Shown here piece after piece: positions 3,809 to 17,922 of a stretch of DNA of 17,922 nucleotides (within the stretch, counting starts at the first letter, position 1; each line of letters starts with the position of its first letter). The notes beneath the pieces were generated by a model that saw nothing but the letters and a program-made list of their open reading frames with translations, was not told the DNA's origin and did no database searches. Location of the stretch: the IMG/VR virus record IMGVR_UViG_2526164632_000023; one strand, 5' to 3'. This stretch comes from a virus (lineage: Duplodnaviria; Heunggongvirae; Uroviricota; Caudoviricetes). The position numbers and the translations under genes are program-made.

Positions 3809-4096
3809 ATGAAACAGAAAATTTCTGGCTTTACTGCCAGCGGCCCCGCTCGGCCTGAAATCCGCCCCGGCGATATTTTCCGGGATAACTATGGCGGCAC
3901 GGTAACGATAAAAGGCGTGGTAGAACGGCACATTACTTACCGCCGTGAAGGTTATGAATATGACTGCGTGATGCCTGTTTATCAGTTCCGGCGTGATTTC
4001 ACGCTGGTGGGCCATCGTAAAGCCGTAAATCAGAAACGTGCAGCAAGTCATATCCGCAAAATTCGTGAAATGCTGGTCGCAGGGGGTAAAAAATGA
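3809..4096 (+). CDS. Hypothetical protein (95 aa), translationally coupled to the replication ATPase
   Basis: Stop overlaps the start of the 4093 ORF (ATGA). Confidence 0.5.
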   Translation: MKQKISGFTASGPARPEIRPGDIFRDNYGGTVTIKGVVERHITYRREGYEYDCVMPVYQFRRDFTLVGHRKAVNQKRAASHIRKIREMLVAGGKK

Positions 4097-5499
4097 AACT
4101 GGCACCGAACGTAAAACTGTTACCGAAAGATAAACACACTGAGGCGGTTATTTTTGCGGGTGATAATGCTCACTCCTTTGCAGAACATTACATGATTGCA
4201 CAGGCCAAAAAAGCAGGCGATCCCATCCCTCCGGTTTACCTGGGCCGTTATCAGTTAAGCGAACTGGACAACCTGCAGATTGTTGATGAGGGGCGATACA
4301 GGGTAACGGTGATACGCGCCGGAAATATTGACGAAGCGCAGCTGTTAACCATAGCGACAAAACTGGCGATCGCCGGAGTCCAGGAAGCGCGGCTGCTTTC
4401 TGAAAACTTCGAATTACTGGAGAAATGGACCGACCAGCTTCCACGGCTACGGGAGACATGGGAGAGAGGGGAAAGCCTGATCATGAACGGAGGAAAACAA
4501 AAAATCACGCTACCGATTTCATGGGGTTCTGAGGGATTCGACGCGCAGCAAAGCTACGTAATTAAGGGGCTTATTCCGGCTGAATCATTATGCAGCACCT
4601 ACGGGGCCAGCGGTTCTTATAAATCGTTCCTGGCTATTTCCTGGTCGTGCCATGTTGCCACAGGTATGGCATGGGGAGGCCGCAGGGTAAGTAAGGGCGC
4701 GGTTATCTATATCGCTGGCGAAGGCAGTATGGGCGTAAAACGCCGCGTTAAGGCGTGGGAGATAACCCACGACAAGGTGGTTACGGATTTGTGCATCGTT
4801 AACGCGCCTGTCTTCCCTGCATCGCCTGACTATGTGGAGCAGGTTATCAGGACTGCCGGACTTGTTAAGAGCAGAACGGGCGAAAATGTGCGGCTGATTG
4901 TGATCGACACGCTGGCCCGTTGCTTTGGTGGGAATGATGAAAATGATTCCCGTGATATGGGCGCATTTATCCAGGGGTGTGACGCGATAAAGCAGGCCAC
5001 AGGGGCCACGGTACTGGTGGTTCACCATTCCGGCAAGGATGAAACAAAGGGGGCGCGAGGTTCCAGCGCATTCCGCGCTGCACTGGATGCAGAGTACCGA
5101 ATCAGCCGGGAAAATTCAGACGTTACAGCACTGGTGGCGGCGTGTACGAAGATGAAAGACGCAGAGGAGCCAAAAGAGAGCGCATACGACCTTAAAAGCG
5201 TGGAGGTGTTTACCGATACCGATGGCGAAGAGATTGTGTCCATGGTGGTGATTGACGTTCCCCGCGCCCCTGCTGAACTGGAGCGCATAGAGGAGGCCGG
5301 GAACAAGACGGAAAATCACACGGCTTTATGGGGTTGTATCCGGTCACGTATACAGCATGGTGATAAATGCACGATCCCGCTGCTACGTGATGACATGAAA
5401 AAGCTGGGATATGACACAAAACACCTTAAACGATGGTTAGCCAAACTGGAAAAAGACGGCGTGATTTGCGTCGATGGGGATGATGTTCACCCACTGTAA
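4093..5499 (+). CDS. Replication initiator / RecA-fold AAA ATPase (RepA-like helicase, AAA_25-type) of the island
   Basis: 468 aa. Walker A GASGSYKSFLAISW, Walker B LIVIDTLARCFGG, VLVVHHSGKDETKGARGSSA motif typical of RepA-like helicases; followed directly by an iteron array. Confidence 0.8.
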   Translation: MKLAPNVKLLPKDKHTEAVIFAGDNAHSFAEHYMIAQAKKAGDPIPPVYLGRYQLSELDNLQIVDEGRYRVTVIRAGNIDEAQLLTIATKLAIAGVQEARLLSENFELLEKWTDQLPRLRETWERGESLIMNGGKQKITLPISWGSEGFDAQQSYVIKGLIPAESLCSTYGASGSYKSFLAISWSCHVATGMAWGGRRVSKGAVIYIAGEGSMGVKRRVKAWEITHDKVVTDLCIVNAPVFPASPDYVEQVIRTAGLVKSRTGENVRLIVIDTLARCFGGNDENDSRDMGAFIQGCDAIKQATGATVLVVHHSGKDETKGARGSSAFRAALDAEYRISRENSDVTALVAACTKMKDAEEPKESAYDLKSVEVFTDTDGEEIVSMVVIDVPRAPAELERIEEAGNKTENHTALWGCIRSRIQHGDKCTIPLLRDDMKKLGYDTKHLKRWLAKLEKDGVICVDGDDVHPL

Positions 5500-7272: not shown

Positions 7273-7357
7273 GTAAGCGCATCATTTAAACCGTCTTTCG
7301 CCTCCCTTTCCTGTTTCCGATACTAATGTCCATTTTCGCAGTAAAAGGACATTTAAG

Positions 7358-8008
7358 ATGAATGCACGAAAAGCGGTACTGGCAGATAATCCAGAATTGA
7401 TCCTGCGTGTGCTACAGCTGAGATTTGACGAGTCACTGTCGTACCCGCGCATTTCTGCGCAGACTGGTGTCAGCAAAACCGCCATTTTTTCTCTGGTGAG
7501 GCGATTTCACCAGGTATTCACTGACTGGCCTCTTTCCGGTGAATATTCCTGCGGGCAACTGGCCCGGGCTCTTTTCCCGGGGCGATACCCTTCAGCCCCG
7601 ACCGTGACTCAGCCTGTGAAAGCAGAGAAACCCCGCCGGAACCGATTTTCACCGGAGTTTAAATGGAGACTGGTTCAGCAAACTCTTTTACCCGGTGCCT
7701 GTGTCGCACAAATAGCTCGAGAGAATGGAATTAACGATAACCTGCTCTTTAACTGGCGGCATCTCTGGCGTAACGGTGGCCTGCAACCGCCCGGCGAACA
7801 TGAAACATCGCTACTTCCCGTGACGTTAACTCCGGAGCCGGATAATAAAATCCCGGCACCAGTGCAGATACCTGAACAGATAAATACACTGCCAGACAGT
7901 CTGTGCTGCGAGCTGGTTCTGCCGGCCGGAACTCTCAGGCTGAAAGGTGAACTGACACCGGCGTTATTACAGACACTTATCCGCGAAATGAAAGGGAGCA
8001 GCCACTGA
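7358..8008 (+). CDS. tnpA: IS66-family accessory protein TnpA (orfA)
   Basis: 216 aa with HTH-like N-terminus; position and sequence typical of IS66 orfA; stop overlaps the tnpB start. Confidence 0.8.
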   Translation: MNARKAVLADNPELILRVLQLRFDESLSYPRISAQTGVSKTAIFSLVRRFHQVFTDWPLSGEYSCGQLARALFPGRYPSAPTVTQPVKAEKPRRNRFSPEFKWRLVQQTLLPGACVAQIARENGINDNLLFNWRHLWRNGGLQPPGEHETSLLPVTLTPEPDNKIPAPVQIPEQINTLPDSLCCELVLPAGTLRLKGELTPALLQTLIREMKGSSH

Positions 8009-8355
8009 TGATATCTCTCCCTGCCGGTTCGCGTATCTGGCTGGTTGCCGGTATCACCGATATGCGAAATGGCTTTAACGGCCTGGCCTCAAAAGTTCAG
8101 AACGTCCTGAAGGATGACCCGTTCTCCGGGCATCTGTTCATCTTCCGCGGACGCCGGGGTGACCAGATAAAAGTGCTGTGGGCTGACAGTGACGGACTGT
8201 GCCTCTTCACCAAACGCCTGGAGCGGGGCCGCTTCGTCTGGCCGGTCACCCGCGATGGAAAGGTTCACCTTACTCCGGCTCAGTTGTCCATGCTTCTCGA
8301 AGGCATCGACTGGAAGCACCCGAAACGAACGGAACGCGCTGGCATCCGCATATAA
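8008..8355 (+). CDS. tnpB: IS66-family accessory protein TnpB (orfB)
   Basis: 115 aa, MISLPAGSRIWLVAGITDMRNGFNGLA...LWADSDGLCLFTKRLERGRF is the conserved IS66 orfB signature. Confidence 0.9.
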   Translation: MISLPAGSRIWLVAGITDMRNGFNGLASKVQNVLKDDPFSGHLFIFRGRRGDQIKVLWADSDGLCLFTKRLERGRFVWPVTRDGKVHLTPAQLSMLLEGIDWKHPKRTERAGIRI

Positions 8356-8374
8356 CCCGTTGTAAAGTGAGGAT

Positions 8375-9945
8375 ATGGACACCTCACTTGCTCATGAGAA
8401 TGCCCGCCTGCGGGCACTGTTGCAGACGCAACAGGACACCATCCGCCAGATGGCGAAATACAACCGCCTGCTCTCACAGCGGGTGGCGGCTTATGCTTCC
8501 GAAATCAACCGGCTGAAGGCGCTGGTTGCGAAACTGCAGCGCATGCAGTTCGGTAAAAGCTCAGAAAAACTTCGCGCTAAAACCGAACGGCAGATACAGG
8601 AAGCACAGGAGCGAATCAGCGCACTTCAGGAAGAAATGGCGGAAACGCTGGGTGAGCAATATGACCCGGTACTGCCATCCGCCCTGCGCCAGTCTTCAGC
8701 CCGTAAACCGTTACCGGCCTCACTTCCCCGTGAAACCCGGGTCATCCGGCCGGAAGAGGAATGCTGCCCGGCCTGTGGTGGTGACCTCAGTCCTCTGGGG
8801 TGTGATGTGTCAGAGCAACTGGAGCTTATCAGCAGCGCCTTTAAGGTTATCGAAACACAACGTCCGAAACTGGCCTGTTGTCGGTGCGACCATATCGTGC
8901 AGGCAACAGTACCTTCAAAACCCATTGCACGCAGTTATGCCGGAGCGGGGCTTCTGGCCCATGTTGTTACCGGGAAATATGCAGACCATCTGCCGTTATA
9001 CCGCCAGTCAGAAATATACCGTCGCCAGGGCGTGGAGCTGAGCCGCGCCACGCTGGGGCGCTGGACAGGTGCCGTTGCTGAACTGCTGGAGCCGCTGTAT
9101 GACGTCCTGCGCCAGTATGTGCTGATGCCCGGTAAAGTCCATGCTGATGATATCCCCGTCCCGGTCCAGGAGCCGGGCAGCGGTAAAACCCGGACCGCCC
9201 GGCTGTGGGTCTACGTCCGTGATGACCGTAACGCCGGTTCGGAAATGCCCCCGGCGGTCTGGTTCGCGTACTCACCGGACCGGAAAGGTATCCATCCACA
9301 AAATCATCTGGCCGGTTACAGCGGTGTGCTTCAGGCCGATGCTTACGGTGGTTACCGGGTGTTATACGAATCCGGCAGAATAACGGAAGCCGCGTGTATG
9401 GCTCATGCCCGGAGAAAAATCCACGATGTGCATGCAAGAGTGCCCACCGACATCACCACGGAAGCCCTGCAGCGTATCGGTGAACTGTATGCCATAGAGG
9501 CAGAATCCGGGGATGTACAGCAGAACAGCGTCTGGCGGCAAGAAAAGCCAGAGCTGCGCCACTGATGCAGTCACTGTATGACTGGATACAGACTCAGATG
9601 AAAACACTGTCGCGTCACTCGGATACGGCAAAAGCGTTCGCATACCTGCTGAAACAGTGGGATGGCCTGAACGTGTACTGCAGTAATGGCTGGGTGGAAA
9701 TCGACAACAACATCGCAGAGAACGCCTTACGGGGAGTGGCCGTAGGCCGGAAAAACTGGCTGTTCGCGGGTTCCGACAGCGGTGGCGAACATGCGGCGGT
9801 GTTGTACTCGCTGATCGGCACATGCCGTCTGAACAATGTGGAACCAGAAAAATGGCTGCGTTACGTCATTGAGCATATCCAGGATTGGCCGGCAAACCGG
9901 GTACGCGATCTGTTGCCCTGGAAAGTTGATCTGACCTCTCAGTAA
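8375..9945 (+). pseudogene. tnpC: IS66-family transposase TnpC, split by an apparent 1-nt frameshift near 9500-9510
   Basis: ORF 8375-9565 has the leucine-zipper N-terminus, CPACGG...CCRC zinc-finger motif and DDE core; ORF 9565-9945 in another frame carries the conserved C-terminus [26 protein letters not shown]. The second frame is open back to 9484, so the shift lies in 9484-9565. Confidence 0.8.
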
Positions 9946-9975
9946 ATATCAATACGGTTCTGGCGAGCCGCTTAC

Positions 9976-10177: not shown

Positions 10178-11323
10178 ATGAAGAAATTAATCGAACTCCG
10201 CCAGCAAAAAACCGCCCTGAAAAACCAGATGCGATCCCTGCTGGAAAAAGCCGACAATGAAAACCGCAGCCTGAACGATGACGAAGGCAAACAGTTTGAT
10301 GAACTGCGTGCAAAAGCCGATTCCCTCGACACAGAAATTTCCCGCCTCGAGTCTGTGGCTGATGAAGAACGTAACCAGCCTGGTGTTCCCGTCGAAGATA
10401 AAATCACCAAAAATGAGCTACGCTCTTACATTCTGACCGGGGAAACCCGCAACCTGTCCGGCAGTGTTCCGGCTGATGGTGGTTATACGGTTATCCCGGA
10501 ACTGAACAGAGAAATTATGCGTCAGCTTTCTGATGAGTCGGTGATGCGTAAAATCTGTACTGTTAAAACCATTCACAGTAATGAATTTAAGCAACTGGTT
10601 TCTGCCGGGGGTGCGGTCGTGGGACACGGCGAAGAAGGTGCGGCACGTAACCAGACGGCAACCCCAAAACTGAATGAAGTCAGTATCCGCCTGTATCCGA
10701 TCTACGCTTACCCGAAAACCACTCAGGAAATTATCGATTTTTCCGAAGTCGATATTATGGGCTGGTTATCTTCTGAAATTGGCGACACTTTCGTTGATAC
10801 CGAAGAAACGGATCTGGTTTCCGGTGATGGCGAGAAAAAAGCCAAAGGTTTCCTGACTTTCCCGCGCACTACGGATAATGACAAAACCCGTCCTTTCGGT
10901 ACGCTCCAGACGAAAAAAGTGACTGGCAGTCTCAGCGCCGATATGCTGATTGACCTGAAATTTACGCTGCGCAATAAGTACCGCAAAAAAGCTGTATGGG
11001 TGATGAACTCAAATACAGCCGCCTCCGCACAAAAACTGAAAAATGCCACTGGTGATTACATCTGGCGCGATCGTTTACAGGCTGGTGATCCTGATTCTCT
11101 GCTGGGGCTTCCGGTTGAATATCTGGAATTTATGCCGGACGGTGTGATTGCAGTCGGTGACTTTAAGCGCGGTTATTTCATCGTTGACCATAAAACCGGT
11201 ACGCGTACCCGTCCGGATTTCAGCGAGCCTGGATTCATTAACATCTATACCCAGAAATATCTGGGCGGTGGTGTGGTGGATTCGAACGCCATCAAGATTC
11301 TGGAAATTCAGGCTGGCAAGTAA
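10178..11323 (+). CDS. Major capsid protein, HK97 fold, with N-terminal coiled-coil delta/scaffold domain
   Basis: 381 aa; coiled-coil-like N-terminus MKKLIELRQQKTALKNQMRSLLEKA...; GGYTVIPE and LLGLPVEYLEFMP...GDFKRGYFIVDHKTG motifs typical of HK97-family capsid proteins. Confidence 0.85.
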   Translation: MKKLIELRQQKTALKNQMRSLLEKADNENRSLNDDEGKQFDELRAKADSLDTEISRLESVADEERNQPGVPVEDKITKNELRSYILTGETRNLSGSVPADGGYTVIPELNREIMRQLSDESVMRKICTVKTIHSNEFKQLVSAGGAVVGHGEEGAARNQTATPKLNEVSIRLYPIYAYPKTTQEIIDFSEVDIMGWLSSEIGDTFVDTEETDLVSGDGEKKAKGFLTFPRTTDNDKTRPFGTLQTKKVTGSLSADMLIDLKFTLRNKYRKKAVWVMNSNTAASAQKLKNATGDYIWRDRLQAGDPDSLLGLPVEYLEFMPDGVIAVGDFKRGYFIVDHKTGTRTRPDFSEPGFINIYTQKYLGGGVVDSNAIKILEIQAGK

Positions 11324-11331
11324 TGAGCAAA

Positions 11332-11352
11332 GGGGGCTTCGGCCTCCTTTTT
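11332..11352 (+). terminator. Hairpin with UUCG tetraloop plus T5 tract between capsid and protease genes (candidate partial terminator)
   Basis: gggggc-ttcg-gcctcc (one G-U pair) followed by ttttt, 9 nt after the capsid stop. Confidence 0.45.
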
Positions 11353-11372
11353 CAGCTTTATGGAGTACACCG

Positions 11373-11933
11373 ATGAAAAACACCGATTTTGAAATCCGTA
11401 CATCTGAACTGACCGCCAGCGATAAAAAACTGGTGGGTTATGCCGTTCGCTGGAACAGCCTTTCAGAAATTATCTGGGACGAGTTTCGCGAACAGTTCAC
11501 GCCGGGGGCTTTTGCTGACTATCTGGCGGCGGGTAATGATGTGCGCTGTCTGTATGAGCATGACTATACCCAACTGCTGGGGCGTACCAAATCCGGCTCA
11601 CTGGTACTGACTGAGGATAACACCGGGCTACGTTTTGAACTGACACCGCCAAATACCCAGCTTGGAAAAGATGTGCTTACGCTGGTGGAACGTGGCGATA
11701 TTACAGGAATGAGCTTTGGCTTTCGCGCATTATGCGAGGAGTGGAATATCGCGCAAAAACCGTATCTGCGTACTGTAACCGCCGCAGAACTCCGTGAAAT
11801 CACGATAACATCGATGCCTGCTTATCCCGAATCCGGCGTGGAGATTGCCCACCGTTCGTTGTTTGCACAGTACCCTGAATTACGCCCGGCAGGAAATAAT
11901 CGTCATCGCTGGGCTGAACTGGCGGGGTTGTGA
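11373..11933 (+). CDS. Prohead maturation protease, HK97 family (S78/U35-like)
   Basis: Start at ATG 11373 with GGAG 8 nt upstream. KLVGYAVRWNS...FTPGAFADYL...LYEHDYTQLLGRTKSGSLVLTEDNTGLRFE...GDITGMSFGF matches the HK97 prohead protease family. Confidence 0.85.
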   Translation: MKNTDFEIRTSELTASDKKLVGYAVRWNSLSEIIWDEFREQFTPGAFADYLAAGNDVRCLYEHDYTQLLGRTKSGSLVLTEDNTGLRFELTPPNTQLGKDVLTLVERGDITGMSFGFRALCEEWNIAQKPYLRTVTAAELREITITSMPAYPESGVEIAHRSLFAQYPELRPAGNNRHRWAELAGL

Positions 11934-11934
11934 T

Positions 11935-13149
11935 ATGTGGTGGCCTTTTAGTCGTAAAAAAAGCGATCTGCGTAACCTGTCCATTGATGATTTTCTGGCG
12001 TTGTCTGGTGTACCAAATACCGGATCCGGAGAATATGTTTCTGCCGGGACGGCTGAATCATTGCCTGCTGTGATGAACGCGGTTTCTGTCATCGCTGAGG
12101 CGGTGGCCACGATGCCGTGTTACCTGTATCTGGTACGCAATGATAAGGGCAGAGAGGCGCGGGAATGGCTGGACAGTCACCCGGTAGATATTCTGCTGAA
12201 TGAGCAGCCTAATTCGTGCCTGACACCTTACCAGTTTAAACGCACAATGATGCGTCACTGCCTGCTGAACGGTAACGCCTATGCGGTTATTGAGTGGGGG
12301 CGGGACGGGCAGCCAAAATCACTTCATCCTTATGCGCCGGGGTGTGTTGTACCGGAACGCACAGGCACACACAAATACCGCTATACCATCACCGAACCCT
12401 GTACAGGAACGGTGCGCACGTATTTACAGGAAGAAGTTCTGCATCTCCGCTATGCCTCGGATGATGGCTTTCTGGGGCGTTCCCCCGTCACGATTTGCCG
12501 TGAGGCGCTGGGGCTTGGCCTTGCTCAACAGCGCCACGGAGCCAGCATTATGAAAGATGGCATGATGGCGGCAGGGATTATCACGTCAGGTGAATGGCTG
12601 GACGGCGTGAAAGGTAAACAGGCATTAGACGCACTGGAACGCTACAAGGGGGCGAAAAATGCCGGAAAAACGCCAATCCTTGAAGGGGGCATGGATTACA
12701 GGCAGCTGGGGATGAGTAACCAGGATGCGGAATGGCTGGCCTCCCGTCGCTTCTCCATTGAAGACATCGCCAGGATGTTCAACGTGTCGCCGATTTTTCT
12801 TCAGGAATACAGCAACAGCACCTACAGCAATTTCAGTGAGGCGAGCCGCGCATTTCTGACCATGACAATGCGCCCGTGGCTGGCGAACTTCGAACAGCAA
12901 ATCAAGGCCGCTTTGCTGGTGACTTCTCCCGTACCTGGTACCCGTTATCTGGTTGAGTTTGATTCAGCCGATTTACTGCGCGCCACACCCACCGAACGTT
13001 ATGCCACGTATGAGAAAGGGATTAAGAGCGGGATCATGAATCCGAACGAAGCTCGCGAACGCGAGGGTATGCCGCCGCGTGAAGGTGGTGATGAGTTCAG
13101 CCAGGCATGGAAACAGACTGTGAAAATTAAAGGGAGAAAAGATGAGTGA
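11935..13149 (+). CDS. Portal protein, HK97 family
   Basis: About 404 aa from ATG 11935, immediately after the protease stop; sequence typical of HK97-type portal proteins. Confidence 0.85.
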   Translation: MWWPFSRKKSDLRNLSIDDFLALSGVPNTGSGEYVSAGTAESLPAVMNAVSVIAEAVATMPCYLYLVRNDKGREAREWLDSHPVDILLNEQPNSCLTPYQFKRTMMRHCLLNGNAYAVIEWGRDGQPKSLHPYAPGCVVPERTGTHKYRYTITEPCTGTVRTYLQEEVLHLRYASDDGFLGRSPVTICREALGLGLAQQRHGASIMKDGMMAAGIITSGEWLDGVKGKQALDALERYKGAKNAGKTPILEGGMDYRQLGMSNQDAEWLASRRFSIEDIARMFNVSPIFLQEYSNSTYSNFSEASRAFLTMTMRPWLANFEQQIKAALLVTSPVPGTRYLVEFDSADLLRATPTERYATYEKGIKSGIMNPNEAREREGMPPREGGDEFSQAWKQTVKIKGRKDE

Positions 13150-13444
13150 AGCCAGAATTACACCTGATGAAGTCAGGGCACATCTTCGACTTGATGATGA
13201 TTTATCCGGTGAAGGCGAACTTCTGAAAATGTATACCGATGCGGCGCTGGAAGCCTGCCAGAAGCATATCGGGAAACGTTTTGAAGACGGGCTGGAATTT
13301 ACCCCGGCAATGCGTGTTGGTTGCCTGATGTACATCGCTTTCCTGTACGAGAACAGGGAAGCAGTTTCACCAGTGGAGCAGTCTGAACTGCCTATGGCTA
13401 TTTCTGCGCTCTGGTCGGTTTATCGTGATGTGGGGGTGTACTGA
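13142..13444 (+). CDS. Head-tail connector / gp6-like adaptor protein
   Basis: 100 aa, ITPDEVRAHLRLDDD...GELLKMYTDAALEACQKHIGKRF pattern typical of gp6-like head-tail connector proteins; start overlaps the portal stop. Confidence 0.65.
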   Translation: MSEARITPDEVRAHLRLDDDLSGEGELLKMYTDAALEACQKHIGKRFEDGLEFTPAMRVGCLMYIAFLYENREAVSPVEQSELPMAISALWSVYRDVGVY

Positions 13445-13884
13445 TGCCGTGGCAACCATTAAGGCGATGCACTGAGCCGGGCTGTAATAAGCGCGTGAAG
13501 TCCGGCAAGTGTGAAGAGCACAGACGGGCTGTATGGCGTGCAGAGGATGCCAGACGGGGACACCGCCGCGCGCGCGGGTATTCCCGACAGTGGGACAAAT
13601 ACCGCGCCCTGTACCTGAGCAAAAACCCGTTATGCGTGCGTTGTCTGGCTAAGGGGATTTATACGCCAGCTCTTGTGGTGGATCACATCATCCCCATCAA
13701 TGGCGGCGGTGATGTTCTCTTCTGGCCTGAGTGGAACCACCAGGCATTGTGCCAGACGTGCCACAACCGTAAGACGACACGGGAAGATCCAGCCACGAAA
13801 GCGAACCGTAAGGCGGGCATGTATCGCGAGCAGGAAGAACGGGCAGCACACCGTAACGACTGGATGTATGGCGATGATGACTGA
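13444..13884 (+). CDS. HNH endonuclease (packaging-associated)
   Basis: Cys-rich; CVRCLAKGIYTPALVVDHIIPINGGGD...WNHQALCQTCHNRKT contains an HNH-type D-H...N...H arrangement; sits beside terS/terL as in HNH-dependent cos packaging modules. Confidence 0.8.
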   Translation: MPWQPLRRCTEPGCNKRVKSGKCEEHRRAVWRAEDARRGHRRARGYSRQWDKYRALYLSKNPLCVRCLAKGIYTPALVVDHIIPINGGGDVLFWPEWNHQALCQTCHNRKTTREDPATKANRKAGMYREQEERAAHRNDWMYGDDD

Positions 13885-14053
13885 ACAGGAGCAAACCAGG
13901 CTGATACGTGGACTGATAAGGCAGCGTGACTTATGGAAGACACAGGAGACAGGGCACAAAGCCAACAGGACAGGGCGCACAAAACGCACCACAGCGAAGC
14001 GATTAACCGACCGTGACCGCGAGGTCATGGAATGTTTTCGCAATCGCTGGTGA
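13868..14053 (+). CDS. Small Arg/Thr-rich hypothetical protein (about 61 aa)
   Basis: In-frame ATGs at 13868/13874/13877 overlapping the HNH stop; MAMMTEQEQTRLIRGLIRQRDLWKTQETGHKANRTGRTKRTTAKRLTDRDREVMECFRNRW. Could be spurious. Confidence 0.25.
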   Translation: MAMMTEQEQTRLIRGLIRQRDLWKTQETGHKANRTGRTKRTTAKRLTDRDREVMECFRNRW

Positions 14054-14172
14054 GGCCGTCAGAGGGGGTGGGGGTGGTTTTCAGGACGAAACCGTCCCTG
14101 CCGGACACCGACCGCCTCCTCAAATTTTTGTGCACGGGAATTTTTTTGAAAATAATTGGGCGAAAAAAGAAC
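14054..14172. other. Candidate cos/packaging-initiation region between HNH and terS
   Basis: 119-bp non-coding gap with G-rich block (gagggggtgggggtgg), hairpin ggacg-aaac-cgtcc and T-rich tracts, positioned where cohesive-end sites lie in HNH-dependent HK97-like modules. Confidence 0.3.
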
Positions 14173-14529
14173 ATGGCAAGACCACCAAAAGCCCCCGCTT
14201 ACCTGGATGAAATCGCGGTCAGGCAGTGGAAGGAAAAATCGCGCCAGCTTTCCGGACGGGAAGACCTTACCCCCGCCGACTGGAGCAATCTGGAGCTGTA
14301 TTGTGTTAACTACTCCATATACCGCAAAGCCGTCGAAGACCTTGCCACGCGCGGGTTCAGCATTGTTAACAGTCAGGGCAGCGAGAGCAGAAACCCCGCC
14401 CTGAGCGCAAAGGCTGACGCTGAAAGAATAATGATCAAAATGGCTTCTTTGCTGGGTTTTGACCCGGTAAGTCGCCGCAGAAATCCACCGGAAACAGAGG
14501 AAGAGGACGAGCTTGACCGCCTGGCATGA
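14173..14529 (+). CDS. Terminase small subunit, P27 family
   Basis: Start at ATG 14173 (MARPPKAP...). LTPADWSNLELYCVNYSIYRKAVEDLATRGF...SRNPALSAKADAERIMIKMASLLGFDPVSRRR matches the P27-type TerS pattern. Confidence 0.75.
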   Translation: MARPPKAPAYLDEIAVRQWKEKSRQLSGREDLTPADWSNLELYCVNYSIYRKAVEDLATRGFSIVNSQGSESRNPALSAKADAERIMIKMASLLGFDPVSRRRNPPETEEEDELDRLA

Positions 14530-16174
14530 GTACGCAGAAGGCGTAAAAAACGGCAAAATTACGGCCTGTAAACGACTGAAACAGGCCGTTAAACGGTATT
14601 TTTCTGACCTTGAAAACCCCCTTTACACGTTCGATCCGGAGGTCGTGGAGCGGTTTATTGCCTTTTCCAGGGTGTGTCCGCACGTAAAAGGCGCAATGCG
14701 CGGTAGCCCCATTGAGCTGGAGCCGTGGCAGCAGTTCGCCTTTGCGTGCATCCTGGGCTTTAAGGTTAAGGCCACCGGACGGCGCAAATACACCAGCGCA
14801 TTCATTGAAGTGCCGCGAAAAAATGCCAAATCCACGGTCGCCGCTATCCTGGCTAACTGGTTTCTGGTTATGGAAAACGGGCAGCAGGATATTTACACCG
14901 CCGCCGTGAGTCGTGATCAGGCGCGGATCGTGTTTGATGATGCGCGTCAGATGTGCCTTTTATCCCGACCGTTACGAAAGCGGGTAAATATTCAGGCACA
15001 CAAGGTGATACACCCGAAAACCAACAGCCTGTTAAAGCCACTGGCAGCAAAAGCGGCAACCATTGAAGGTACAAACCCGAGTCTTGCCATTGTGGATGAA
15101 TATCACCTGCACCCTGACAACGGGGTTTATTCCGCGCTTGAACTGGGAATGGGGGCGCGTCCGGAGGGGCTGTTATTTGCCATCACCACATCGGGGAGCA
15201 ACGTTGTTTCAGCCTGTAAACAACACTATGACTATTGCTGCCAGATACTGGATGGTGAAGAGGTGAACGAATCCATGTTCGTGCTGATTTACGAGCTGGA
15301 TGATGAAAGCGAGGTTGACGATCCGGCGATGTGGATAAAGGCGAATCCCAATATCGATGTTTCCGTCGATCGTGAAAAACTGGCCTCAACCATCCAGAAA
15401 GCGCGGGGTATTCCGTCGCAGTGGGTGGAAATGCTCACCAAGCGATTCAATATCTGGTGTCAGGGGGCTACGCCGTGGATGGGTAACGGTGCATGGGCGG
15501 AGTGCGCCGGAACGTTCGCGGAGGCGGATTTATACGGTCAGGAGTGCTACGCGGGGCTGGACTTATCATCAACCAGCGATATTTCCAGCGTGTGCTATGC
15601 CTTTCCGGTCGGTAAAAAGATTATGCTGGTTTCCCGTCACTATCTGCCGGAATTTCAGCTACAGAACCCCGCCAATAAAAACCGCGCCATCTATCGCCAG
15701 TGGGTAAAGGCGGGCTGGATACGCACAACACCGGGTGACTGCATTGATTATGACCGTATCCGTGATGACATCATGGCGGATGCAGAGAATTTCAATATCA
15801 GGCTGGTGGGCTTCGATACATGGAACGCCACGCACCTGAGGACGCAGCTACAGGGGGCAGGATTTGAGGTGGAGCCGTTCCCGCAAACATACCTTCGTTT
15901 CAGTCCGGCGGCGAAATCGTTCGAAGTTTTTGTTAACCGGAAGGTGATTGTGCATCGTGGCGATCCGGTGCTGGCCTGGTCAATGAGTAATGTTGTGATG
16001 CAGAGTGACGCGAACGCCAATATCAAGCCGAACAAGAAAAAATCATCCAACAAGATAGACCCGAGCGTTGCGGCTCTGATGGCTTTTGGCACATTCCAGG
16101 CAGAGCATGAGGAATTTGCATTTGATATGAGCGACAGCCACAAAGAGCGGCTTGCGGCGTTTGATGGGGTATGA
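14513..16174 (+). CDS. Terminase large subunit
   Basis: 553 aa; N-terminal ATPase and C-terminal nuclease regions typical of TerL; overlaps the terS end by 17 nt. Confidence 0.9.
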   Translation: MTAWHEYAEGVKNGKITACKRLKQAVKRYFSDLENPLYTFDPEVVERFIAFSRVCPHVKGAMRGSPIELEPWQQFAFACILGFKVKATGRRKYTSAFIEVPRKNAKSTVAAILANWFLVMENGQQDIYTAAVSRDQARIVFDDARQMCLLSRPLRKRVNIQAHKVIHPKTNSLLKPLAAKAATIEGTNPSLAIVDEYHLHPDNGVYSALELGMGARPEGLLFAITTSGSNVVSACKQHYDYCCQILDGEEVNESMFVLIYELDDESEVDDPAMWIKANPNIDVSVDREKLASTIQKARGIPSQWVEMLTKRFNIWCQGATPWMGNGAWAECAGTFAEADLYGQECYAGLDLSSTSDISSVCYAFPVGKKIMLVSRHYLPEFQLQNPANKNRAIYRQWVKAGWIRTTPGDCIDYDRIRDDIMADAENFNIRLVGFDTWNATHLRTQLQGAGFEVEPFPQTYLRFSPAAKSFEVFVNRKVIVHRGDPVLAWSMSNVVMQSDANANIKPNKKKSSNKIDPSVAALMAFGTFQAEHEEFAFDMSDSHKERLAAFDGV

Positions 16175-16422
16175 CGAGAATGAGCGAAACCGAACTACTA
16201 AAAATAATCCGCCGCGTTACCGGAATCAGCCAGCAGCATGACGAACAGGCCACGCAGCCGGACAGCGTGACCGCCGAAAATTATGTGCGTGTTGTAGCGG
16301 AAGTGATGCGCCGTAATGGTATCCAGCTTAATGATGTGGATATGCGCAACATACGGATCCGCGTTCTGGAAATGCTGGCATACCGTCGCCGCGTGGAGAT
16401 GTATCGGGAGAAGGAAAAATAA
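16171..16422 (+). CDS. Hypothetical protein (83 aa) downstream of terL
   Basis: Start overlaps the terL stop (ATGA); no family recognised. Confidence 0.45.
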   Translation: MTRMSETELLKIIRRVTGISQQHDEQATQPDSVTAENYVRVVAEVMRRNGIQLNDVDMRNIRIRVLEMLAYRRRVEMYREKEK

Positions 16423-16457
16423 CTTACCACTGGAAGAAGCCGGAGCGGTTGCGGCGG

Positions 16458-16650
16458 TAACTGGTTGATATTTTCGAAATTCGCCAGCGGCGAACATCGG
16501 GGAAACCAGCCTAACCCGTTGATATTTTCGGGAACAGCCAACGGCTGAGGCCGGATCAACCGACTATCTTTCAGATAGTCACAAACTACGAAATTTTCAC
16601 AGTTTAATTACTCGCCAGCTTAATCGCTAACTCACTGATATTTTCGGAAA
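16458..16650. repeat. Three direct copies of a ~20-bp unit TAAC(N4)TGATATTTTCG(R)(R)AA, with a fourth partial copy at 16767-16779
   Basis: Exact 11-mer TGATATTTTCG at 16466-16476, 16520-16530 and 16636-16646; 15-mer GCCTAACCCGTTGAT at 16509-16523 and 16765-16779; palindrome GACTATCT-TTC-AGATAGTC at 16562-16580. Confidence 0.6.
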
Positions 16651-16790
16651 CCTCGATTTGAGGAGACCGGAACGTCTACATGGCTGCATCACCATAACGA
16701 TGATTTAGCCCACCAGCAACCATAACGATTTCCGTTACAGTTGATGTGCTTTTTTGCTGGTAAGGCCTAACCCGTTGATTCTTCCACAAT

Positions 16791-16848
16791 CCCCCATTGG
16801 GGGAGGCTGGACGGCCTGCTGTGGGCTTTTCCACCATTGGTGGAAAAG
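16791..16848. repeat. Two palindromes centred on CCA-T-TGG (CCCCCATTGGGGG and CTTTTCCACCATTGGTGGAAAAG)
   Basis: Read directly: 6-bp arms at 16791-16803 and 11-bp arms at 16826-16848, each around a single central T. Confidence 0.5.
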
Positions 16849-17385
16849 TGGCGCGACTACAGGGCTGGATCATCAATATGGTGACGCAGCAACAGAGTGA
16901 CCATTAGTCACCTTGTTCTAACTCGCTGTATTCGTTTAATTTCCACCAACTGCGGAAATTGAGAAACTCACCCGCCAGATTCTGAATGGTGAAAATCACC
17001 GGGGATCTGAATAGGCATTTCCTCTATGGAGGTCGCACCGTTTTCGGGAGAAGGTGCGATCATGTTCGTCATACCGGTTCCGTTGAAATGAAATAGCCTT
17101 GTATGGGCATCATCACCATGCAGGGGATCAAAATCTCTGTAGCTTCATGTTGCCGGGACCGCCAGCCTCGCCAAATTTTTGCGTTTGTGAAAAACGAAAA
17201 TTATTACGTGCTTTGCCCTCTCCTGTTTCTGATGTTGTATACTCGCGGCCTTCTAATTGTGCTGGTGCTTTTTTGAGATTGTGGCGCTGTGTATCGATCC
17301 GTATATCATTCGGTGTATCACTTTTGATAAATTGCTACGTGTGAATTTGTTTTTAACTGACAAAAATCAGTGAGTTATGTGAATT

Positions 17386-17922
17386 ATGAAACATATTGTA
17401 GAAGTAATGATCCCCGAAGCGGAGATTAAAGCGCGTATCGCCGAACTGGGTCGTCAGATTACTGAGCGTTACAAAGACAGCGGCAGCGATATGGTGCTGG
17501 TGGGTCTGCTGCGTGGCTCATTTATGTTTATGGCGGACCTGTGCCGTGAAGTTCAGGTATCTCATGAAGTCGACTTTATGACCGCCTCCAGCTACGGTAG
17601 CGGCATGTCCACCACCCGTGATGTGAAAATCCTCAAAGATCTGGATGAAGATATCCGTGGCAAGGACGTGCTGATTGTTGAAGATATCATCGACTCGGGG
17701 AATACACTGTCGAAAGTGCGTGAGATCTTAAGCCTGCGCGAACCGAAGTCGCTGGCGATTTGTACGCTGCTGGATAAACCGTCCCGTCGTGAAGTGAACG
17801 TCCCGGTAGAATTTATCGGTTTCTCGATCCCGGATGAGTTTGTGGTGGGTTACGGCATTGATTACGCACAGCGTTACCGTCATCTGCCGTATATCGGCAA
17901 AGTGATTCTGCTGGACGAGTAA
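17386..17922 (+). CDS. hpt: Hypoxanthine phosphoribosyltransferase (chromosomal core gene)
   Basis: 178-aa product is near-identical to E. coli Hpt as I remember it ([55 protein letters not shown]...); complete, with stop at the window end. Confidence 0.95.

Follow-up and report, generated by a model that had tools for sequence, protein, structure and literature searches.

The window, that is, the whole 17,922-bp stretch of DNA analysed here, is with high confidence a complete capsid-forming phage-inducible chromosomal island (cf-PICI) without its left attachment site (attL) and with an IS66-family insertion, whose integrase uses as its bacterial attachment site (attB) the 5′ end of the hpt coding sequence and not a tRNA gene. 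The integrated element supplies the region upstream of hpt, its start codon, and its first four codons, and thereby leaves an intact reading frame behind.

Overall organization of the island

The window opens with the GTG start codon of a P4-type tyrosine integrase and closes with the hpt stop codon; attL lies outside it, ~175–195 bp beyond its left edge. The following genes and elements make up the coding part of the island.

1–1227, + strand: P4-type tyrosine integrase (int), GTG start, hpt-targeting subfamily (Pfam Arm-DNA-bind_3, Phage_int_M, and Phage_integrase)
1236–1302, + strand: int-alpA RNA motif, RF02996 (Rfam, 55.2 bits against a gathering threshold of 35.8)
2343–2669, + strand: AlpA-family regulator, probable excision/directionality factor (Pfam Phage_AlpA, E = 6e-12)
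4093–5499, + strand: RepA-like replication helicase, AAA_25 (Pfam; RefSeq annotation of the identical gene in the AST240 island, L004)
7274–9975, + strand: IS66-family insertion with a split transposase ORF, not part of the ancestral island (PHROG transposase matches; missing in L004)
10178–16174, + strand: cf-PICI head/packaging module comprising major capsid protein, S78 prohead protease, portal, head-tail adaptor, HNH protein, TerS, and TerL (PHROGs, Pfam, and RefSeq annotation of L004)

Besides int, AlpA, and the RepA-like helicase, the island body encodes an SSB and a ProQ-like protein, and no tail or lysis genes were found among the ORFs between int and hpt. With int, alpA, a replication gene, unidirectional gene order, and a size (15.1 kb without and 17.8 kb with the insertion sequence) within the range of 10–20 kb, the element has the gene set of a PICI. 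The gene content also follows that of the cf-PICI prototype EcCIEDL933 (bioRxiv 10.1101/2022.09.08.507074), in which int, alpA, and replication genes precede those for capsid, protease, portal, connector, HNH protein, TerS, and TerL, without tail or lysis genes; the likeness of the window to this prototype is one of gene content, and the window copy differs from it in carrying the IS66-family insertion. The cf-PICI study (Alqurainy et al., bioRxiv 10.1101/2022.09.08.507074) gives six attB sites for E. coli.

The integrase shares 84% amino acid identity (78% at the nucleotide level) with that of the hpt-integrated PICI of E. coli VG1046-3E9 (L003) and 56% amino acid identity with that of a PICI integrated at fis (L006). 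It is thus a terminal tyrosine integrase akin to those of the clade of fis, hpt, and helper-embedded PICIs (HE-PICIs), as judged from Pfam architecture and pairwise identities. Directly downstream of int lies the int-alpA RNA motif, the sole Rfam match in the window.

The IS66-family insertion is 2.7 kb long, is flanked by a target duplication of ~9 bp, and is missing from the 99.9% identical island of strain AST240. Its ORFs occupy 7358–8008 and 8008–8355, and TnpC is split into 8375–9565 and 9565–9945. Located just upstream of the capsid gene, the insertion may disrupt expression of the late operon and cripple transfer of this copy.

Attachment site at the 5′ end of hpt

P4-type integrases commonly target the 3′ ends of tRNA genes. 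The first-pass annotation, made from the window only, had seen nothing tRNA-like in a gap of ~950 bp between the last island ORF and hpt, and had left the choice between a non-tRNA att core and a tRNA-like target at the left junction, beyond the window. Both the gap and its lack of such a gene were borne out: 963 non-coding bp separate the end of the last island ORF (16422) from the hpt start (17386), and ARAGORN detected 0 tRNA or tmRNA genes in the whole window and none in 22 kb of AST240 that include the entire island and both junctions. Rfam at gathering thresholds likewise gave nothing over the whole window besides the int-alpA motif. A permissive Rfam search returned nothing credible for window positions 16300–17922 (one chance match to a lncRNA, E = 0.53) and zero matches for the left junction (L004 18400–19400).

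To locate the junctions, the right end of the window was compared by megablast with 5,426 complete E. coli genomes. Hpt was found in 5425 of them, and the matches to island-free genomes start at window position 17385, the base that precedes the hpt ATG. The gcd and hpt genes of K-12 are divergently oriented and 205 bp apart. In three carriers of an island at this locus, ATCC 43886 (L001), AST240 (L004), and VG1046-3E9 (L003), the intact 205 bp are found beside gcd, and next come ATGAAACATACTGTAGAAG, island DNA, and int, which starts 175 bp past the attL block in ATCC 43886 and AST240. The right junction of the window reads ...GTGAATT-ATGAAACATATTGTAGAAG-TAATGATCC..., where island DNA runs into hpt. 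The comparison with the island-free K-12 locus, which had been suggested at the outset as a check, therefore defined attB together with a duplicated 19-nt core: the identity block common to attL and attR, (T)ATGAAACATA[C/T]TGTAGAAG, corresponds to hpt coding nt 1–19 (20 nt with the preceding T), and the direct repeat flanking the island contains a single mismatch at hpt nt 11, which is C in attL and T in attR.

17385–17404, + strand: attR identity block TATGAAACATATTGTAGAAG, hpt nt −1 to 19 (three-way attB/attL/attR alignment, attP contig, and partition of mismatches at nt 11 and nt 20)
17386–17922, + strand: hpt, hypoxanthine phosphoribosyltransferase, with codons 1–4 derived from the island and the remainder chromosomal (Pfam Pribosyltran; island-free genomes match from 17385)

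Of the two options left by the earlier reading, the non-tRNA core is thus the one found. A tRNA, tmRNA, or small RNA gene as the target, situated beyond the window at the left junction, would accord with the usual habit of P4-type integrases and with the fact that the window begins exactly at int and leaves attL out of view; in all three carriers, however, the DNA to the left of int is the unaltered gcd–hpt intergenic region plus hpt nt 1–19, in which neither ARAGORN nor permissive Rfam found an RNA gene, and we give this alternative almost no credence. The att blocks do not overlap the 3′ end of a tRNA or tmRNA gene, and both junctions are derived from hpt.

The same site is used by other elements. 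The attL and attR share TATGAAACATA...TGTAGAAG at the 5′ end of hpt and match the published attL and attR of hpt PICIs. Exactly the same junctions bound the island of VG1046-3E9, a largely unrelated second E. coli element without capsid genes, and a pattern search of IMG/VR retrieved the island-type right junction in 14 stretches, beside several distinct sequence variants of the hpt 5′ region.

A further alternative would treat hpt as cargo of the element, with the true right end beyond the window. Hpt is indeed co-oriented with all island genes and directly follows them, and carriage of hpt within the element had been raised in the first-pass annotation as a possibility that synteny would reveal. 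The synteny argues otherwise: the order hpt–can–yadG is identical in K-12 and in the carriers, and only the 5′ end of hpt is borne by the element, the remainder of hpt together with can and yadG being chromosomal in 5425 of 5426 E. coli genomes. Hpt is moreover present in all but one of the 5,426 genomes as against at most 28 with the island, and the circular attP contig described below contains no hpt past nt 19. Cargo status of hpt is accordingly held to be extremely improbable, and attB is assigned to the hpt 5′ end.

Position of strand exchange

Two positions that differ between host and island bracket the crossover. At nt 11, attL has the host-type base (C) and attR the island-type base (T) in the three carriers as well as in the published E. 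coli and most of the published Salmonella junctions, and at nt 20 the situation is opposite, with the island C in attL and the host T in attR. Based on this partition, both cleavage points are located between nt 11 and nt 20, and the predicted 6–8-bp overlap must lie within hpt nt 12–19, TGTAGAAG (window 17397–17404), the exact cleavage positions being estimated from the junction sequences. The first-pass description of the island as lying upstream of hpt and abutting it was therefore close in placing the boundary but not exact, as the right boundary falls inside the hpt coding sequence. Such bracketing of the crossover to nt 12–19 goes beyond what is discussed in the published catalogue of these elements (PMC10111431).

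In Salmonella, hpt has T at nt 15, and the published junction pairs show T/T, A/T, and T/A in attL/attR, respectively; the attP contig also has T. Such a mixture would be expected for a position inside the overlap, where a heteroduplex may be formed and resolved either way. The mismatch at this position would require either that the recombination tolerates mismatches within the proposed overlap or that attP is polymorphic, and the attP contig does carry the T variant.

These data also bear on the possibility of an att core in the intergenic or promoter region in front of hpt, with the coding sequence left untouched. A weak similarity between the right end of the island and the native hpt leader, GTGA(A)TTTGTTTTTAA, could be read in that way. 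However, the sole block common to attB, attL, and attR comprises nt −1 to 19 of the ORF, attL is of host type through nt 11–19 whereas attR is of island type through nt 11, and the attP circle agrees with this division, so that an intergenic core appears very unlikely in comparison with a core within the hpt coding sequence.

Excised form and distribution

If attB is the hpt 5′ end, the excised form is predicted to contain the junction ...GTGAATTATGAAACATATTGTAGAAGCAAAAATT..., the predicted attP being also written as ...GTGAATTATGAAACATATTGTAGAAGCAAAAATTATT.... A metagenomic contig of 15,908 bp with a 77-bp terminal overlap, IMGVR_UViG_3300014071_000007, carries the P arm, ATGAAACATATTGTTGAAG, the P′ arm, and int contiguously. 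This assembly represents a circle or concatemer in which attP is intact. The contig has T at hpt nt 11, which is the base of the element itself, and contains no hpt sequence beyond nt 19. In a scan of IMG/VR for the doubled motif, L018 was the only relevant match and the others were mostly unrelated repeats. The 77-bp terminal overlap (L018 1–77; L020 5397–5473) has its end precisely on the final base of the att core, which is consistent with a branch in the assembly graph between excised (attP) and integrated (attR) forms in one sample.

In a distant-mode search, the conserved P arm was found in 28 of the 5,426 complete E. coli genomes, at a single place in each, and the island type of the window in about nine (8–9). 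An integrase scan with one genome per species returned one locus only, a fis PICI, and so conveys little information on distribution.

It may be asked whether the copy in the window, even with the att site correctly assigned, has become a fixed remnant that is no longer mobile, the present function of the region being only the expression of hpt. The 2.7-kb IS66-family element immediately upstream of the capsid operon and the restriction of the island type to ~9 E. coli genomes speak for such a state. On the other side, int has an intact ORF, no differences from the IS-free copies are seen in attL, attR, or the arm repeats, all of which are intact, and an IS66-free twin exists in other strains. 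We consider immobility of this copy a real but clearly minor possibility.

Non-coding region preceding hpt

The interval 16900–17385, to which the first-pass annotation had drawn attention, is made up of three parts, the tail of a module common to PICIs, a spacer specific to the island type, and a conserved P arm; only ~17258–17385 of it is specific to the att site. The non-coding features to the left of hpt are as follows.

16423–17095, + strand: non-coding module common to PICIs at other att sites (pieces found in 638 E. coli genomes at other loci)
17096–17257, + strand: spacer found only in this island type (no match outside the 8–9 genomes carrying it)
17258–17384, + strand: conserved P arm of attP (95% identity to L003 over 17258–17922, the island bodies being otherwise unrelated)
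17290–17321, + strand: three TGTATC-type repeats spaced by 12 bp, TGTATCGA, GTATATCA, and GGTGTATCAC, candidate integrase arm-type sites
17356–17371, + strand: palindrome ACTGA-N6-TCAGT (nearly invariant in the P-arm alignment; ACCGA in one arm, L026)

Three ORFs predicted near or within the gap, 17099–17344 (+), 16676–16876 (−), and 16198–16497 (−), were treated as spurious, having no Pfam matches; the first of them is not kept in other P arms in an alignment of 15 arms.

The module at 16423–17095 contains hairpins and four copies of a ~47-nt repeat (family D1) at 16455, 16509, 16625, and 16765. Each repeat has a core, TTGATATTTTCG, followed by a small hairpin; the copies span 16455–16811, and more palindromes extend to ~16960. 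A cis-acting role in packaging (cos) or in recognition by the terminase is plausible for this module. Part of it recurs in E. coli MS 200-1 (L005 8430–19179), where a classical PICI is situated between cspD/yljB and clpS, just upstream of a housekeeping gene, and ends on the right in ~1.1 kb of non-coding DNA that is partly homologous to window positions 16176–17095.

The P arm is a conserved module of ~130–150 bp that is common to 15 distinct P arms from several enterobacterial hosts. The segment CCGTATATCAnT(C/A)GGTGTATCA (17299–17320) is identical in all 15 except for the marked base, which is A only in L026; it is preceded at 17290 by a third copy of TGTATCGA, and AATTGC is kept in most of the arms. 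In two diverged elements, the exact 9-mer GGTGTATCA occurs at −74/−75 from the hpt ATG and again as a doublet at +146/+147 and +158/+159. The latter, with its 12-bp spacing, is located in the P′ arm, ~25 bp upstream of int. About 0.3 exact copies per 39.5 kb would be expected by chance, by our own estimate from 4^9. One more exact copy, within terL and on the minus strand, probably arose by chance, and the 6-mer GTATCA shows no enrichment in the window, only the 9-mer being informative. The GGTGTATCA repeats are probable arm-type sites for the Arm-DNA-bind_3 domain of Int, as far as can be deduced from their conservation and placement on both sides of the core.

Relationship with known PICIs

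PICIs at hpt have been catalogued previously, with 49 elements mapped by use of TIGER (NAR Genom Bioinform 2023;5:lqad036, PMC10111431). The published junctions are ...gagaTATGAAACATActgtagaagcaaaa for attL and ...TATGAAACATAttgtagaagtaatgatcc for attR; they are the same in E. coli and Salmonella, and a matching AAACATATTGTAGAAG block is present in Xenorhabdus (PMC10111431, Supplementary Files 3 and 4). The element in the window has the same target and junctions, a terminal co-oriented tyrosine integrase of the same clade, and a size of ~15 kb. It differs in its integrase, which has no more than 84% amino acid identity to that of the common E. coli type, in its island-side flanks, and in its capsid-forming body, the sole published-type hpt PICI inspected (L003) having no capsid genes. 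In those supplementary att alignments of PMC10111431 that are available as text, neither the island-side flank of the window nor the accessions of the carrier strains were found. The attachment site is therefore already known, and the element is a diverged member of both the hpt PICIs and the cf-PICIs. In a paper on P2 phages (PMC3448106), "hpt" abbreviates "homogeneity partition test" and has nothing to do with the gene.

PICIs at fis, of which 2642 are listed (PMC10111431), have a related integrase, as seen in L006, and an attP scaffold homologous to that of the hpt elements, with TTAACTGATTAAAATCAGT, TTTTCATGCTTT, and TTTATAATCAAT in common (L006 8700–8940 compared with window 17340–17404 and L004 18808–19012). 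L006 also has a doubled TGTAT-type motif with 12-bp spacing ~25 bp upstream of int. In contrast to the hpt elements, the fis PICIs target the 3′ end of their gene and replace its stop-codon region, and their arm motif is TGTATAAACA in place of GGTGTATCA. L006 has the same 19-nt TTAACTGATTAAAATCAGT at its fis-PICI junction, where it derives from a palindrome of the fis stop-codon region that is homologous to ACTGA-N6-TCAGT. This suggests that the hpt attP may be a retargeted fis-type attP in which the fis stop-codon palindrome was retained.

The arm motif varies with the integrase subfamily, being TGTATCA in hpt, TGTATAAACA in fis, and TGTATTGC in helper-embedded PICIs. For the last of these, the doubled motif tgTGTATTGCantgTGTATTGCa has been described at −81 and +132 of attP and stated to be absent from other PICIs (PMC10111431). 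The hpt elements have an analogous doublet of different sequence, placed about −74 and +147 relative to the hpt ATG; a third variant is present in a fis PICI. The family thus lends itself, as a natural series, to the study of how tyrosine integrases come to use new targets.

Phage 21/e14 at icd and P4 at tRNA-Leu, for example, are integrating elements known to replace one end of the target gene. There, as here, attP brings a replacement for the displaced part of the target gene, which stays intact; unlike those elements, which replace the 3′ end, the hpt island replaces the 5′ end, and the duplicated block is very short (19 nt). Integration at icd and at tRNA genes is also cited in PMC10111431, in which no comment is made on the 5′-end nature of the hpt site or on a surrogate start codon or promoter. 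With a 5′ end to be replaced, signals for the start of transcription and of translation must come from the element as well. Replacement of this kind is rarer than that of the 3′ end.

Consequences for hpt and possible effects on int expression

Everything to the left of ~17397, including the hpt start codon, is island DNA. Integration severs hpt after about codon 4–6, and the P arm, at the right end of the island, rebuilds an intact hpt ORF with a new upstream region, start codon, and codons 1–4. Displaced to attL, the native gcd–hpt intergenic region and hpt nt 1–19 now face the P′ arm and int. In the window the ORF is restored with a single substitution, MKHIVE in place of MKHTVE (Thr4 to Ile), and the protein is annotated as WP_000680691.1 in both island types versus WP_000683335.1 in K-12. 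Three island lineages provide different starts that are all in frame with hpt, namely MKHIVE, MKHYVE (Sen35135), and MSELKHIVE in the Xenorhabdus element, in which the ATG lies outside the identity block. These varied but in-frame starts argue that the translatability of hpt is under selection.

The promoter that serves hpt in the integrated state is presumably also supplied by the island. A scan for consensus sigma-70 promoters over window positions 16400–17450 found no site. The spacer contains a −10-like TATACT at 17238–17243, a candidate surrogate promoter element for hpt; its position is kept among hpt PICIs in the 15-arm alignment, where a GATG(C/T)TGTATACTCGC block is conserved, and in most hpt PICIs TATACT is found just downstream of a strong terminator. 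Another promoter candidate, TTCGCA-N17-GATAAT, is present in the P arm of L020 within sequence common to most other arms and is degenerate in the window.

At attL (L004 18808–18897), island DNA directly follows the displaced hpt promoter and the 19-nt hpt stub, and the fusion creates an ORF of 29 codons, MKHTVEAKIILYSCCYVFALGSVFIFYNQ*, directed toward int. No convincing terminator lies between this ORF and int; its L003 counterpart has 19 codons and is not conserved. One may speculate that the native hpt promoter drives int from this position. With a housekeeping gene hit at its 5′ end, and with int leading the island genes in the orientation of that gene, a promoter swap can be envisaged: in the lysogen, the native hpt promoter would read through the 19-nt stub and the P′ arm into int, while hpt would be placed under an island promoter situated among the Int arm sites, and in the excised circle the island promoter would face int across attP. 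We rate this scheme, jointly with the retargeting of a fis-type attP suggested above, as unlikely, though not negligibly so.

Altogether, the missing tRNA gene reflects no annotation gap but a genuine attachment site in a protein-coding gene, as published previously, to which the present analysis adds the mildly new points of the bracketed overlap, the logic of 5′-end replacement, and the subfamily-specific arm motifs. If the promoter swap were true, expression of int would be coupled to the physical state of the satellite, and purine salvage of the host would come under the control of the satellite through Int and AlpA.
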